Shown here: piece by piece, positions 47,136 through 51,898 of the stretch
How the letters are laid out: each line of letters opens with the position of its first letter
Numbering within the stretch: the first letter of the stretch is position 1
Origin: Candidatus Zixiibacteriota bacterium
GTDB lineage: Bacteria > Zixibacteria > MSB-5A5 > UBA10806 > 4484-95
Direction: 5' to 3'
Length of the DNA: 51,898 nt
Assembly (NCBI GenBank): GCA_029932605.1
Contig: JAOZPT010000009.1
Span: 1 to 51,898, forward strand
Program-made: the position numbers and the translations under genes
Notes under the pieces: model-generated
What the model was told of the DNA's origin: nothing
What the model saw: the letters and a program-made list of their open reading frames with translations, nothing else
Databases searched by the model: none

Positions 47136-48305
47136 ATGAGTTTTGCCGGAAATTTAGAAACAATATCACTACCTGATATATTCCAGCTGATTTTTTCTAC
47201 TAAGAAGACGGGACTTCTTGTTATCTCCAAGGGAGATATTAAAAAGGAAATCTATTTTAAGGATGGTTTTACAGTTTATGCCTCCTCCACAGAGGAAAGG
47301 GATTTATTCGGTAATCTACTTTTAAAAATGGGGCGGATATCAAAGGCCGAGCTTGATAAGGTGCTAAAAGAAAAAAAGGAGGGCAAGAAAATTGGCAGTA
47401 CACTGGTGGAAATGAAACTGTTTACGCGTGAAGAGATTATGGATTGCCTACGGTTACAGATCGAGGAGACAATTTATAGCTTATTTGGCTGGAAGGATGG
47501 TGAGTTTAATTTTTTTGAAGGAAAAACACCACCTCCAGGTTCTATCCAGACCGAATTAAATCCAATGAATATAATTATGGAGGGAACGCGCCGGATCGAT
47601 GAATGGGCAGAGCTTAAGAAAATTCTTCCTCCTGATGATGCTTATCTCATGTTGGAAAAAATCCCCCAGCTGAAAACCGAGGAGATCCATTTAAGCCGAA
47701 ATGATATACTGGTTATGGCCAATATAGGTTCGGGGAAAAAGATGGGTGAACTTCTTAAGGAATCTTCGCTTGATCAGTTTCTAACCTCAAAAGCGTTGGC
47801 GAAATTACTGCAGATGGGACTTGTAAAGATAGGTGAGATTGTTAAGGAGGAAAAACCAAAAGTTGATGAAACAGAAGAGTTGATTAAACTTCTGGCAGTT
47901 ATTTACAAACACAATTTTGAGATAATACTGAGCAACCTGAAGGATAAAATGGGTTCCAAAGGTGAAAAGGTATACGCTGAGACATTCCAGGAACGCAAGT
48001 TAGATTATCCACTTTTGTCTGGTTTAATAAACGGTAGGGAAGGTGAACTTTGTTATGAGCTATTTCTTAAACTAGCGAAATCCCTCCCGAAAGAAGCATG
48101 CGTACATCGCTTGATCGTAAATTTCAATGATTTATTATCTGATTATCTGATTATCATACAGAAATATCTTGGGAAAAAGATGTATAAACGGACTCTTTCA
48201 CAGATAAGAATTCAAACCCAAAACAGTATTAATAGCAAGAAACAATTAGCGCTAAAATATGGACTTGAGGACGAATTTTCAAGGGCCTTAAAGGATGTTC
48301 GTTAA
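47136..48305 (+). CDS. DUF4388 (PatA-N-like) domain protein
   Basis: GNLETISLPDIFQLI...KKTGLL...IYFKDG, LFGWKDGEFNF and MEGTRRIDEW. Confidence 0.88.
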   Translation: MSFAGNLETISLPDIFQLIFSTKKTGLLVISKGDIKKEIYFKDGFTVYASSTEERDLFGNLLLKMGRISKAELDKVLKEKKEGKKIGSTLVEMKLFTREEIMDCLRLQIEETIYSLFGWKDGEFNFFEGKTPPPGSIQTELNPMNIIMEGTRRIDEWAELKKILPPDDAYLMLEKIPQLKTEEIHLSRNDILVMANIGSGKKMGELLKESSLDQFLTSKALAKLLQMGLVKIGEIVKEEKPKVDETEELIKLLAVIYKHNFEIILSNLKDKMGSKGEKVYAETFQERKLDYPLLSGLINGREGELCYELFLKLAKSLPKEACVHRLIVNFNDLLSDYLIIIQKYLGKKMYKRTLSQIRIQTQNSINSKKQLALKYGLEDEFSRALKDVR

Positions 48306-48307
48306 TC

Positions 48308-48679
48308 ATGGGTAAAAAAGTATCTGTTCTGGTTGCATTTTTAGTGGCAACATTTTTTAATGAGGCGTTTGCTGGTGAGTTTTATAAGCTTTATCCGTTG
48401 TGGCTTGAATATGCTTACCGATTATTGGCTTTGGTATTGATATCGGCTGGTTTATTTGTGTGTTTTTCTGTTTTTAACACATTGAGGGGTGGCAAGTTTG
48501 GGTTGCCATGGGCGTTTTTGCTGATGGCTCTAGTGACCATATTTATCAGGACATTACTTGAGGTCTTAACCGTTTTCGATATTGCTTATTTTCAGGCCTA
48601 TGTTTTTGCAGGCATTTATATCTTGTTTTTCCTTTTGCTCTTGGTTGGATTTATTCTTTATAAAATTGGTTTGGAATAA
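48308..48679 (+). CDS. Small polytopic membrane protein, function unknown
   Basis: Signal-like or TM N-terminus plus three TM helices; starts 2 nt after the upstream stop. Confidence 0.75.
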   Translation: MGKKVSVLVAFLVATFFNEAFAGEFYKLYPLWLEYAYRLLALVLISAGLFVCFSVFNTLRGGKFGLPWAFLLMALVTIFIRTLLEVLTVFDIAYFQAYVFAGIYILFFLLLLVGFILYKIGLE

Positions 48680-48723: not shown

Positions 48724-49560
48724 GTGAGAAGTGTTATGAATATTGATGTATCAGAGTTAGACGATCGGATTGCTAAGTGCCAGACGATACTTGATGCCAA
48801 TCCCAATAGCCAGATATTCGCTGCTTTAGCAGAGGCTTATAGAAAGAAAGGGATGGTCAAGAAGGCTCTTGATATCTGTCTTAAAGGGCTTGAGAAACAT
48901 CCCGATTACGGTTCAGCTTATCTTGTACTGGCAAGAGTATTTTACGATAAGGGAGATTATATTGAAGCCAACCGCCATTTGAAAAAAGCAATATCGGTCA
49001 GTGGTCGGACAAGGTCGGTGGATCTCTTTGAAGCGGAGATATTAATCAAGCTGTCCCAGCCCGGCAAAGCCAGGAATATTTTGGAAAAACTGTACAAATC
49101 TGACCCGAACAATGAGGTGATAAAAAATCTTTTGGTCTCTCTTGACCGTGAAGCAAGTCGAGCCTCGGCTATAATGGACGAAACCGAGAAATCCGAATCA
49201 TCGTTAAAGAAGACTTATACCCTATCAAATGCTTTAAGTGTGATAAAAATATTACCCCGAGTCCTCGGAGTTGTGGCTGTAGCAAGAGATGGTATTGTAG
49301 TTGAGGGGCATTTCGACGGTATGTTGTCCCATGATGAAATCGGGGCATTAGCCTCGGCGGTCTTTGACGGCATAAAACAGGGAATAGCCAAAATTGATTA
49401 TGGAAAATTATATGAAATACTTGTGGAATCGGATAAGTCCAAGCTGTGGATTATAAATCGTGTCGATTATATTATTGTTATCTTCACCCGTGATGATGTC
49501 AACATTGGCTCTTTGAGATTTAAAGTGAATGAAATTTTAAAAAAGATGAAAAATTCTTAA
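48724..49560 (+). CDS. TPR + roadblock/LC7 fusion protein
   Basis: FAALAEAYRKKG...GLEKHPDY TPR pattern; C-terminal VLGVVAVARDGIVV...GALAS roadblock; start may be 48736. Confidence 0.85.
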   Translation: MRSVMNIDVSELDDRIAKCQTILDANPNSQIFAALAEAYRKKGMVKKALDICLKGLEKHPDYGSAYLVLARVFYDKGDYIEANRHLKKAISVSGRTRSVDLFEAEILIKLSQPGKARNILEKLYKSDPNNEVIKNLLVSLDREASRASAIMDETEKSESSLKKTYTLSNALSVIKILPRVLGVVAVARDGIVVEGHFDGMLSHDEIGALASAVFDGIKQGIAKIDYGKLYEILVESDKSKLWIINRVDYIIVIFTRDDVNIGSLRFKVNEILKKMKNS

Positions 49561-49570
49561 CAGGGTAACT

Positions 49571-49972
49571 ATGCTGGCCGTTAAACAGGACAAGAAGGAA
49601 AACAAATTTCAAAATGCTCTGGAGTATCTTGGTGAATATCGAGGTGTGAAAGGAGCGGTGATTTTTGATATAGAGGGACTCGTCGTTGGTTATTTATCTC
49701 GAGATGGTTTTGATGCCGAGATATTTTCACCTTTGGTATTGTTAATGCATGATAATGTAAATGCCATTATGAAAAGGCTTGGTGAAAAACCTGCACAATC
49801 CATAGTGGTTAAAAATCCTGATAGCTGGATTACGGTTATACGTATAGGAAATCTAGTGCTGGTAGTCAATGCTGATAACAAGACTGACGAGCTATTAAAA
49901 GTCAGGATTGGTCAAGCGGTCGATATGATAGAAACACATTTGAGAGATAAATATCCTTTGCTGGTAAAATAA
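49571..49972 (+). CDS. Roadblock/LC7 domain protein (divergent)
   Basis: GVKGAVIFDIEGLVV...LGE...LVLVV...LLKVRI. Confidence 0.8.
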   Translation: MLAVKQDKKENKFQNALEYLGEYRGVKGAVIFDIEGLVVGYLSRDGFDAEIFSPLVLLMHDNVNAIMKRLGEKPAQSIVVKNPDSWITVIRIGNLVLVVNADNKTDELLKVRIGQAVDMIETHLRDKYPLLVK

Positions 49973-49984
49973 ATTGGAGGTTTT

Positions 49985-50323
49985 ATGTATAATGTTCTAA
50001 GCGACCTTAACAAGACATCTGGTGTTAGAGGGTCTATGCTTGTAGGGGCCGATGGTATTATTATTGCCGCTGACTTAGATTCGAAATTTGAGGATGAAAC
50101 TGTTGGTGCGTTATCGGCGTCGATAGTTTCCAGCGTTGGTAAAGCTATGGAGCGCCTGAAAAACGAATCCGCCAAACAGATAACCGTCGAAGCGGAATAT
50201 GGCAAATTGTTTTTAACTGATGCGGGTGTCGGTATCCTTACGGTAATTACCGAAAAAGATGTTAACATAGGACTGGTTAGGCTTGAAATTAAAAATGCTG
50301 TATCCAAAATAAGTGGACAATAG
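49985..50323 (+). CDS. Roadblock/LC7 domain protein (MglB/MglC-like)
   Basis: GVRGSMLVGADGIII...GALSA...VNIGLVRLE; GGAGG RBS. Confidence 0.9.
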   Translation: MYNVLSDLNKTSGVRGSMLVGADGIIIAADLDSKFEDETVGALSASIVSSVGKAMERLKNESAKQITVEAEYGKLFLTDAGVGILTVITEKDVNIGLVRLEIKNAVSKISGQ

Positions 50324-50333
50324 GGTATAAATA

Positions 50334-51488
50334 ATGGTATCGATAAATTATGCTTTCAAGGAGATAATCTCCAAGATCGTTTACTATGGACCCGGTCTTT
50401 CGGGGAAGACTACTAATCTTCAATATGTGTTTAATAAAGTACCTAAGGATACACGTGGTGAGATGATAAGTTTGGCTACTGATGCCGATAGGACATTGTA
50501 TTTTGATTTTCTACCGCTCAATGTTGGGAACATTGGTGGTTTTTCCACGAAGTTCCAGCTGTATACGGTCCCCGGGCAGGTTTATTACAATGCCACCAGG
50601 AAACTTGTTTTGCGGGGTGTTGATGGTCTGGTGTTTGTTGCCGATTCCCAGGTTGAGAAGATGGATGAGAATATTGAATCATTAATAAACCTTGAGGAGA
50701 ACCTGGCAGAATATGGTTACGATTTTACCGATATTCCCTTAGTGATTCAATATAATAAACGTGACCTGCCAAATATAGCCAGTATTGAACAGCTTCAGGA
50801 GTTGTTGAATTCCAGGGGGGTGCCGTATTTCGAAGCGGTGGCAACCACTGGCCAGGGTGTGTTTGCAACGTTAAAGGCAATAAGTAAGATGGTGCTGGAT
50901 AAAGCTCGAGAAAAAAGCGCGGGAAAACCAAGAAGAACTGAACCGGCAGTTGTAAGTTCGACTGTGTCGGCGGAGACTAAAGAGCGCTCAATTGCCGTAG
51001 TAACAAGAGAATCTCCAGCAAAACAGATATCGGCTGAAGAGATTAAAAAATCGCCACCGGAAAAAGAAGCTCCGTTAGAAAAACCAGCTATTGCTTCAGA
51101 ATATGACACCATGACCAACGTGGTGGTTTCAACCTCTGCGGAAGATATTGAGGAGGAAAAGGAAGAGGCTCCAAAAGAAGACCTTGAGGAAACTACTGTC
51201 CATTCAGAGTTGAAAGAAGATTCCAAAGAGGATGATATCCAGACAGATTCCAGCAACATACATCCTGATATACTTGATGGAGAGAAGATAAACTCTACGA
51301 AAACTGATGAGACTCCCAAGCAGGAAGAAAAACCGGCAAGTGGGTTTGATGAGGAAATTACTGTTGTTACTGACCCACACCAAGTTGGCCAGTTGTTGGC
51401 CAAGCCCCAGATGGCTAAGAGCAAGAAAGTGAAGGGGAAAAGGAAATTTCAATTATTTGGCTGGTTAAAGAAGAAAAATACATCATGA
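50334..51488 (+). CDS. mglA: MglA-family small Ras-like GTPase with a long C-terminal extension
   Basis: KIVYYGPGLSGKTTNL, DRTLYFDF, LYTVPGQ, QYNKRDL and EAVA in the first ~190 aa, followed by an acidic low-complexity tail. Confidence 0.93.
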   Translation: MVSINYAFKEIISKIVYYGPGLSGKTTNLQYVFNKVPKDTRGEMISLATDADRTLYFDFLPLNVGNIGGFSTKFQLYTVPGQVYYNATRKLVLRGVDGLVFVADSQVEKMDENIESLINLEENLAEYGYDFTDIPLVIQYNKRDLPNIASIEQLQELLNSRGVPYFEAVATTGQGVFATLKAISKMVLDKAREKSAGKPRRTEPAVVSSTVSAETKERSIAVVTRESPAKQISAEEIKKSPPEKEAPLEKPAIASEYDTMTNVVVSTSAEDIEEEKEEAPKEDLEETTVHSELKEDSKEDDIQTDSSNIHPDILDGEKINSTKTDETPKQEEKPASGFDEEITVVTDPHQVGQLLAKPQMAKSKKVKGKRKFQLFGWLKKKNTS

Positions 51489-51505: not shown

Positions 51506-51898
51506 GTGGCTCAGGAAAACCAGGTACTTTACGAAGAGGAGATTGAACAGATCGACCGGGTGCTTACTCGCTTGATAAAGGAAGCAGAGGCTAAGTGCGC
51601 GTTGCTGGTTGACAAGGATGGTCATTTGATCACCCGTCAGGGGTTCACGCACACTCTTGATACGACCGCCCTGGCGGCTTTATTAGCTGGTAGTTTTGCC
51701 TCGACAAGAGAGATTGCCAGACTGGTAGGAGAACCTGAATTTTCGGTTTTGTTCCACCAGGGAAAGCGTGACCATATTCATATCTCCTTAATTGGAGAGA
51801 GAACCATTTTAGTGGTGATTTTTGACGACCGCACTACTATAGGAATGGTCAGACTTTACGCCAAAGAAGTTAGCGAGGAGCTGCTTGAATTTTTAAGA
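51506..51898 (+). CDS. mglB: MglB (GAP for MglA), truncated by the window end; not in the ORF track
   Basis: AAGGAGG RBS and GTG start; open for 131 codons: MAQENQVLYEEEIEQIDRVL...LLVDKDGHLI...LDTTALAAL...LVGEPEF...FHQG...LVVIFDDRTTIGMVRL, closely following the Myxococcus MglB pattern. Confidence 0.92.
   Translation, partial: MAQENQVLYEEEIEQIDRVLTRLIKEAEAKCALLVDKDGHLITRQGFTHTLDTTALAALLAGSFASTREIARLVGEPEFSVLFHQGKRDHIHISLIGERTILVVIFDDRTTIGMVRLYAKEVSEELLEFLR

Follow-up and report, generated by a model that had tools for sequence, protein, structure and literature searches.

A conserved C-terminal tail with a predicted membrane anchor on a Group 1 MglA of Zixibacteria

The mglA locus

The small GTPase MglA of a Candidatus Zixiibacteriota bacterium carries, behind its G domain, a C-terminal tail that recurs across its phylum and ends in a predicted membrane anchor. 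Its gene lies in a window, meaning the whole stretch of DNA analysed here, of 51,898 nucleotides (GenBank assembly GCA_029932605.1, contig JAOZPT010000009.1, positions 1 to 51,898), and all features placed in this window are on the forward (+) strand. The mglA gene (50334..51488) is a single open reading frame (ORF) of 384 amino acids (aa), running from ATG to TGA with zero N bases, and its product matches the Pfam families Arf, Ras and Gtr1_RagA. A tblastn search of the source genome (2.5 Mb, 99.96% complete) returned one MglA match, making it the sole MglA of that genome.

Residues 1-193 (50334..50912) form a Group 1 MglA G domain (PDB 5ymx, 6h17 and 3t12; E 2.7e-80 to 2.1e-72). Residues 3-193 are collinear and gap-free with the MglA of Myxococcus xanthus (5ymx, E 2.7e-80), and the protein of Thermus thermophilus (3t12, E 2.1e-72) matches the same residues. 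As the match ends at residue 193, approximately 190 residues are extra in this MglA. An earlier note, made by a model from the DNA letters, had read these extra residues and an intact G domain from the ORF, and both readings are borne out. The P-loop GPGLSGKT (19-26; 50388..50411) contains a G21 that is invariant in a 101-sequence alignment, while DRT (D52-R53-T54; 50487..50495), which supplies the intrinsic arginine finger and the G2 threonine, and TVPGQ (78-82; 50565..50579), with the catalytic Q82, are invariant in 101/101 aligned sequences. The G4 motif NKRD (141-144; 50754..50765) follows the pattern NKxD, also invariant in that alignment. Papers are cited below by their PubMed Central numbers, for the portions of their text that were available. 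R53 and Q82 stand where MglA has its intrinsic Arg finger and its catalytic Gln (PMC3199381), and the signature of Group 1 is an Arg beside the G2 Thr with a TVPGQ G3 motif bearing the catalytic Gln (PMC4316618, PMC3199381). The protein has R53-T54, TVPGQ with Q82, the G1 P-loop and G4 NKxD, and an adjacent roadblock gene places mglB within four genes of mglA; its 384 aa fall outside the 150-240 aa that a 2014 survey took as its working definition. By these features the G domain is that of a Group 1 MglA, and the whole protein is a Group 1 variant.

Three elements follow the G domain. Residues 196-354 (159 aa; 50919..51395) are an acidic low-complexity linker, composed to 52% of E/D/P/S/T with a net charge of -21, much as the earlier note had described it, and are predicted to be disordered. 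In the AlphaFold2 model (101-sequence alignment) the last helix spans residues 176-196, no secondary-structure element lies beyond it, and from residue 201 the predicted local distance difference test (pLDDT) takes block values of 35-57. The heptapeptide KPQMAKS (357-363; 51402..51422), here called the PxMAxS motif, stands directly before the tip and is, from its conservation among homologues, a candidate protein-binding motif. The basic-aromatic tip itself (364-381; 51423..51476) consists of a basic run, a cluster of F372/L374/F375/W377/L378 and KKK, and is predicted from sequence scores and conservation to be a membrane anchor. The C-terminal end of MglA reads KSKKVKGKRKFQLFGWLKKKNTS.

Upstream of mglA lie a DUF4388 protein of 389 aa (47136..48305; PF14332, E 1.6e-33) with an MshE-related cyclic di-GMP motif (NF053729, 38.9 bits against a cut-off of 38), a motif that the PilB of the locus also has; a small hydrophobic protein of 123 aa (48308..48679), with no Pfam family and matched in only 9 of 40 relative loci; a TPR and roadblock protein of 278 aa (48724..49560; TPR_19 E 7.8e-11, Robl_LC7 E 8.7e-4); a divergent roadblock protein of 133 aa (49571..49972; PF03259 E 3.7e-4, below cut-off; 37/40 loci); and, directly upstream of mglA, a roadblock protein of 112 aa (49985..50323; PF03259 E 2.2e-14). 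The gene after mglA (51506..51898, continuing past the window to contig position 52009; PF03259) is mglB, for the roadblock GTPase-activating protein (GAP), and its best NCBIfam match is MglB (NF052242, E 1.5e-26, below cut-off). It holds a short N run (four X codons, contig ~51899-51910) before its C-terminal helix, where the window ends. Next come pilB, pilT, pilC and a sensor kinase gene (contig 52028-57855; TIGR02538 and TIGR01420 above cut-off). Among 40 longer relative loci, mglB, pilB, the upstream roadblock gene and the TPR-roadblock gene are each present in 40/40, with mglB and pilB downstream of mglA every time, as against 39 for DUF4388, 38 for pilC and 36 for the sensor kinase; pilT was matched in all 40, two of these matches (46-53% identity) lying inside pilB as apparent cross-matches. 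The operon roadblock-mglA-mglB-pilBTC is conserved, and its synteny, together with the biology of M. xanthus, suggests that MglA may control the pilus motor.

Conservation and chemistry of the tail

With the G domain as query, 248 of 257 genomes in the phylum Zixibacteria gave an MglA match, 241 of them a single one; among the 120 best homologues, those that bore a name were Zixibacteria. Among the 150 MglA matches listed, 147 lie in open frames longer than 300 aa, and the remaining three, in shorter frames, run off contig ends. Complete ORFs from sampled genome loci measured 314-649 aa in 60/60 cases, each with a basic, F/W-containing end. A further 20 stretches yielded 15 complete ORFs, all tailed; of the others, one was truncated where its contig stops and the search pattern missed four. 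The tail is present in 75/75 complete Zixibacteria ORFs, its absence from close relatives having been what the earlier note said would count against its reading. A homologue with 84% identity has the identical length of 384 aa. The notion that the tail arose by read-through or by a sequencing or assembly error, or is functionless drift, could draw on the short N run nearby on the contig. That run lies inside mglB, mglA has no N, and the tail recurs in this and other assemblies; because relatives conserve it and the three short frames run off contigs, this explanation is rejected.

Two peculiarities of distribution accompany these counts. All three genomes of family f3 (G024, G033 and G042; 96%, 88% and 52% complete) are without an MglA match, possibly through loss of the module. 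Conversely, records titled Ignavibacteriales or Terriglobales (L103, L104, L110, L111, L114, L115, L171) carry an MglA of Zixibacteria type; the coordinates of L103 are those of G100 in the Zixibacteria search, and its title probably differs from its GTDB placement.

The linker is the least conserved part of the protein. Compared with the query, 54 sequences show an identity of 0.77 over the G domain, 0.14-0.18 over the linker and 0.41-0.50 over the final 28 residues, and in 60 relatives the linker is 89-424 aa long and net acidic in 55. This is the layout of Ras and Rab proteins, with a variable region between the G domain and the anchor and a polybasic end. Among 71 homologues of the same order, identity remains at 0.16-0.18 over most of the linker and rises to 0.44-0.55 at three islands. 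Two of these are confined to this order, namely TNVVVS (261-266; 51114..51131), found as an exact pattern in 17/60 ORFs, all of families f1/f2, and EETT (285-288; 51186..51197), found in 15/60; the third is the acidic FDEEIT (338-343; 51345..51362), whose pattern [FY]DxExT occurs in 19/60, 18 of them in f1/f2. The term "hypervariable", which the earlier note applied to the tail, suits most of its length and fails at these order-wide islands and at PxMAxS.

Beyond the linker, identity in the same 71 homologues reaches 0.79 at residues 357-367 (KPQMAxS-x-KVK) and 0.62 at residues 368-381; the proposed alignment of homologues has accordingly found a terminal motif that is kept while most of the linker varies. 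The pattern [KR]PxMA[EKR]S occurs in 117 of the 119 closest homologues, with E at the variable position in 113, and P-x-M-A persists in 13/15 further ORFs from other, more distant families. In the query and three close homologues a K (one R) replaces this E, adding charge beside the tip. Both P373 and M375 (numbering of the relative G003) are invariant in an 85-sequence alignment deliberately drawn from motif-bearing families. Such conservation exceeds what lipid binding explains, and a protein contact is therefore its likely reason; the PxMAxS motif probably adds such a contact beside the anchor.

The same strictness lends some weight to a broader though unlikely alternative, in which the tip and the islands serve chiefly as short protein-binding motifs, with a minor part left to lipid binding. 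Candidate partners would be the acidic C-terminal helix of MglB, one of the other roadblock proteins, the TPR protein, the DUF4388 protein or PilB. The conserved islands TNVVVS, EETT and FDEExT fit this alternative, as do the beta-rich domains or acidic motifs in which the MglAs of other lineages end, and there are precedents in a linker motif of GltJ that binds MglA-GTP (PMC11135422) and in the linker of RomR, itself a determinant of pole targeting (PMC3441718). It accords poorly with the islands being limited to f1/f2 whereas the partner genes are phylum-wide, and with the behaviour of the last 12 residues, which vary in sequence among families yet keep their basic flanks and aromatic cluster. 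The sequence of the tip appears to turn over while its physical chemistry persists.

That chemistry is unusual within the genome. When the last 25 aa of each of 1704 genome ORFs (each at least 150 aa) are compared, the net charge of +10 in MglA is equalled or exceeded by 7. For the basic-hydrophobic (BH) score, calculated with residue values that we take to be those of the published scale, the MglA tip ranks second of the 1704 C-termini and scores 1.18 at residues 362-380. The score indicates lipid-binding sites over a 19-residue window, with a mark of 0.6 (PMC6960411). In 60/60 Zixibacteria ORFs the BH maximum of the whole protein falls at the tip and lies above this mark, which was also exceeded in 15/15 further complete ORFs read later; at the C-terminus it is exceeded by 318/1704 genome ORFs and by 0/33 short MglAs. 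The hydrophobic residues are clustered more tightly than in 90% of shuffles in 60/60 tips, and at least two F/W lie within the last 20 aa of 60/60 ORFs. A basic tip beside a strongly acidic linker is also a blocky charge pattern, which could point to binding of another polyanion (nucleic acid or polyphosphate) or to condensate-like polar clustering driven by the tail. Either role is extremely improbable, since neither would lead one to expect the aromatic residues, the tight hydrophobic clustering or the replacement of the tip by a transmembrane (TM) stretch described below.

No Cys occurs within the last 10 residues of the 60 ORFs or of 119 database homologues, and there is therefore no CAAX or prenylation signal. 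A profile of the 60 tips matches MglA alone among the 1704 genome ORFs (next E 1.5), by which the idea that the tip was copied from another protein of the genome was rejected; residues 330-384 gave no usable match in the ESM Atlas. The source genome has no MinD above the TIGR01968 cut-off, and 11 weak matches to the ParA/MinD family.

Anchors in other phyla and the proposed tether

A survey of other phyla covered 80 loci drawn from a portion of the GTDB genomes; six of these loci were missed by the pattern. In Myxococcota, Desulfuromonadales, Gemmatimonadota and Eisenbacteria the MglA is of 192-224 aa, and long MglAs were found in Fibrobacterota, Planctomycetota, Sumerlaeota and Latescibacterota. 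The best 30 loci of Fibrobacterota, closest matches and not a random sample, gave 27 complete ORFs, 21 with a basic-aromatic tip and none with a TM stretch, defined as 19 residues with a Kyte-Doolittle mean of at least 1.9. From the best 30 loci of Planctomycetota, chosen likewise, 27 were read and 22 complete ORFs obtained; a terminal predicted TM stretch is present in 19 of these and a basic-aromatic tip in one. Two chemically different predicted anchors thus occupy the same position, which is the strongest argument for the tail as a tether, and it is because another phylum has a predicted TM helix at this place that tethering to the membrane is the favoured interpretation. The same helix counts against a mainly protein-binding tip.

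The ends themselves are diverse, with at least four tip types among the long MglAs. The predicted planctomycetal helix (L125, L127, L132, L213-L238) ends the protein with almost nothing beyond it, and would make these MglAs bacterial tail-anchored small GTPases. In Fibrobacterota (L184-L209) a motif MYFTS(V/I)(D/N)TD...KKPVNP precedes the tip as a lineage-specific counterpart of PxMAxS. A small beta-rich terminal domain stands in place of an anchor in L174 of Latescibacterota, L120 of Sumerlaeota and many of P0136-P0269, and other ends include acidic motifs such as PFLDIKPY, and ELRPYVPKKK in Fibrobacter.

Beyond the catalytic residues, the conserved tail and the operon, which are observed, we infer that the tip probably binds the anionic inner membrane, so that the acidic 159-residue linker, predicted to be disordered, would leash a Group 1 MglA near the type IV pilus motor that it may control. 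The K/R runs would draw the tip to anionic headgroups, and F372/L374/F375/W377/L378 would insert shallowly, without lipid modification and with no need of a regular helix. The acidic linker would hold the G domain off the bilayer, yet close enough to meet MglB, the additional roadblock proteins and the motor of the pilus. Since nothing visible couples the tip to the nucleotide switch, its binding is expected to be weak and reversible and not to depend on GTP; it would restrict MglA to two dimensions and would not select a pole. MglB, with the three extra roadblock proteins, may instead determine where MglA is GTP-loaded, and the output would go to PilB, PilT and PilC. For comparison, the MglA of M. 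xanthus, which is without a tail, is diffuse in lipid-lined droplets (PMC13408092). The earlier note's tether on a long flexible linker survives in this form, its linker being disordered in the prediction that it had called for; the helix type and close K-Ras parallel that it attached to the tether do not.

Several observations weigh against membrane anchoring, or against particular forms of it. The tip had been called amphipathic and likened to the C-terminal helices of MinD and FtsA. It does share with these its position at the extreme C-terminus, with basic beside hydrophobic residues; yet its best 11-residue hydrophobic moment, 0.36, is matched by 77% of genome ORF ends and equalled by 78% of 5000 shuffles of the last 18 aa. 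A helical moment with p<0.1 is seen in 0/40 tips of f1, f2, f5/f7/f14 and f9/f13, and in 0/8 of the query's own family. An amphipathic helix is accordingly not supported for the query MglA, whose tip has no amphipathic periodicity beyond chance; as far as sequence can tell, it is a hydrophobic cluster flanked by basic runs and makes a poor amphipathic helix. Tips of certain other Zixibacteria families resemble one more nearly, with p<0.1 in 10/15 tips of f6/8/10/11/12/15/16 and 2/5 of f4, and moments of approximately 0.7 reached in these same families; a genome ORF that we take from its sequence to be FtsA has 0.75. A tip pattern rule, formulated after these tips had been viewed, passes 59/60 Zixibacteria ORFs, 116/119 database homologues, 14/15 unseen ORFs and 93/1704 genome ORFs, but also 48% of composition-preserving shuffles. 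A profile of 47 tips found two chance-level matches in the PDB, and neither a MinD, FtsA or FlhG helix nor FtsY among them. When the rule and the TM definition were applied to the best 150 cluster representatives, 41 had a tip, a TM stretch was present in 14, and the remaining 95 had neither. Among these 95 are proteins ending in small beta-rich domains, in acidic stretches or in the manner of Fibrobacter, besides cases that the rule missed and proteins that look broken; because of them, long MglA tails are not always anchors. Basic-hydrophobic sites, moreover, also bind proteins, with lipid binding in only some of those tested (PMC6960411).

Whether the tail replaces recruitment by RomR was approached with a single query, the C-terminal 60 aa (RomR-C) of a receiver-domain ORF beside valS in one Myxococcus genome. 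That ORF is presumably RomR. Across 61 Zixibacteria genomes the query gave one weak match (E 9e-4, inside a 1309-aa frame), and among five control genomes with short MglAs it gave matches in three and missed two. Since those two controls are also without a RomR-C match, nothing is concluded, and the idea that the tail stands in for recruitment by RomR is weak.

A distinctly improbable variant would make the tip a nucleotide-coupled switch, docked against the G domain or the MglA-MglB complex in one nucleotide state and let go to the membrane in the other, in the manner of the N-terminal helix of Arf. It has a precedent in the GTP-dependent membrane binding of Arf type in Asgard archaea (PMC11914678), and the conserved PxMAxS could serve as the docking element. 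It must contend with a variable linker of 89-424 aa, with an AlphaFold2 model (101 sequences) in which the tip has no confident structure (block pLDDT 48-57), and with the TM anchor of the planctomycetal type, which could not be released. A complex prediction of the tip and G domain with two MglB and GTP, made on proteins of the relative G003, scored 0.02 and is no evidence either way.

The tether may belong to a wider pattern. Gene order is mglA-mglB in 74/74 long-MglA loci with an mglB match and mglB-mglA in 30/30 short-MglA loci, counts in which 25 loci had no flank match, certain loci come from one and the same genome, and related lineages do not count as independent. In a G-domain tree of 93 rows, Zixibacteria, Planctomycetota and the short forms each fall on one side of a branch (support of 99, 97 and 92, respectively, in the Shimodaira-Hasegawa-like approximate likelihood ratio test), and a 171-row tree has similar branches. 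These trees came from quick searches and were midpoint-rooted, the 171-row set being biased to long proteins, and they do not set the direction of gain or loss. Constraining the tip-bearers of Zixibacteria and Fibrobacterota together was not rejected (approximately unbiased test, p-AU 0.33), a result that demonstrates no clade. It is suggested, tentatively and with appreciable doubt, that tailed MglAs are a large, overlooked bacterial branch of Ras proteins with the order mglA-mglB and a self-carried, leashed anchor. Its chemistry would be swapped by lineage, a basic-aromatic tip in Zixibacteria and Fibrobacterota and a TM tail-anchor in Planctomycetota, and the soluble MglA of 195 aa in the model organisms would then be one special case. 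Membrane-confined polarity by small GTPases would be common in bacteria, with a combined lipid and partner address at the tip, like that of Rab and Ras targeting.

In models of polarity MglA is assumed to be soluble and to reach the pole through partners, among them RomR/RomX, MglC and SgmX. Should the tip bind lipid, whole phyla would operate the MglA switch on the membrane, with altered diffusion, GAP encounter and design of the polarity circuit, and bacteria would possess a lipid-free counterpart of eukaryotic small-GTPase anchoring.

Comparison with known systems

The Group 1 MglAs of M. xanthus and T. thermophilus (PDB 5ymx, 6h17, 6hjh and 3t12) resemble the query in their collinearity over residues 3-193, with the same numbering of G21, R53, T54 and Q82, in having MglB encoded next door and in their link to type IV pili. 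They differ in being of 195-196 aa and recruited by partners, whereas the query is about 190 residues longer and bears a predicted anchor of its own; its locus, furthermore, has mglA-mglB in place of mglB-mglA and three extra roadblock proteins, and its relatives lack a convincing RomR-C match with the single query tried.

Longer MglAs have been noticed before. A "Group II" or "MglA2" was described in 2010 for MglAs of 225-327 aa, among them one of 313 aa in Fibrobacter succinogenes, with an extra C-terminal part "of unknown function" (PMC3000849). This is the same plan of MglA plus an additional C-terminal part, although the grouping was by size and the available text proposes no anchor (PMC3000849); the Fibrobacter tails (L169, L175) differ from the query in having no aromatic tip. 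The 2014 survey excluded sequences longer than 240 aa, and 39 of its 488 MglA-subclade sequences were longer nonetheless (PMC4316618). A literature search of titles and abstract openings, outside which most subscription journals lie, found no proposal of a membrane anchor on MglA and no mention of Zixibacteria together with MglA; some long MglAs may appear in Table S2 of that 2014 survey.

The closest design is that of Escherichia coli FtsY, which we take to be a GTPase of the signal recognition particle (SRP) class. Like the query, it is a GTPase in which a terminal basic-aromatic motif ends a long acidic region: its terminal basic alpha-A1 motif precedes an acidic A-domain, joined to an NG GTPase domain, and binds anionic lipid dynamically (PMC5533587). 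It differs in that the anchor is N-terminal and a second anchor, alpha-N1, is regulated by SRP, and no sequence homology is shown; the 26-aa tip of relative L035 aligned, with similar letters, to the two lipid-binding motifs of FtsY at residues 3-13 and 182-200, at non-significant values (E 4.6-4.8). The helices of MinD, FlhG and FtsA are likewise short, C-terminal, and basic with hydrophobic residues, and bind weakly and reversibly (PMC6803595, PMC13537761). The query tip has no regular face, and MinD couples membrane binding to ATP-driven dimerisation, a coupling not shown for MglA.

Among eukaryotic systems, the hypervariable regions of Ras and Rab proteins and the non-lipidated RGK GTPases also join a G domain to a variable C-terminal region and a membrane-targeting end (PMC4042065). 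In none of the 179 MglA homologues do the final 10 residues include a Cys, so that no CAAX box is present, and the MglA tail is approximately ten times longer than the extension of K-Ras (PDB chains of 188 versus 169-170 aa), which leaves the close K-Ras parallel drawn in the earlier note unsupported. The resemblance is one of design, and the Ras and Rab families are not considered to descend from MglA (PMC4316618). The Arf GTPases of Asgard archaea are Ras-superfamily proteins of prokaryotes that bind membranes without lipidation (PMC11914678); they are, in contrast, archaeal and of the Arf clade, and they use an N-terminal amphipathic helix in a GTP-dependent manner, with no long linker. Set beside these systems, longer MglAs as such are known, and the variant described here appears to be a G domain of Group 1 whose conserved leash ends in a predicted anchor, phylum-wide in Zixibacteria.

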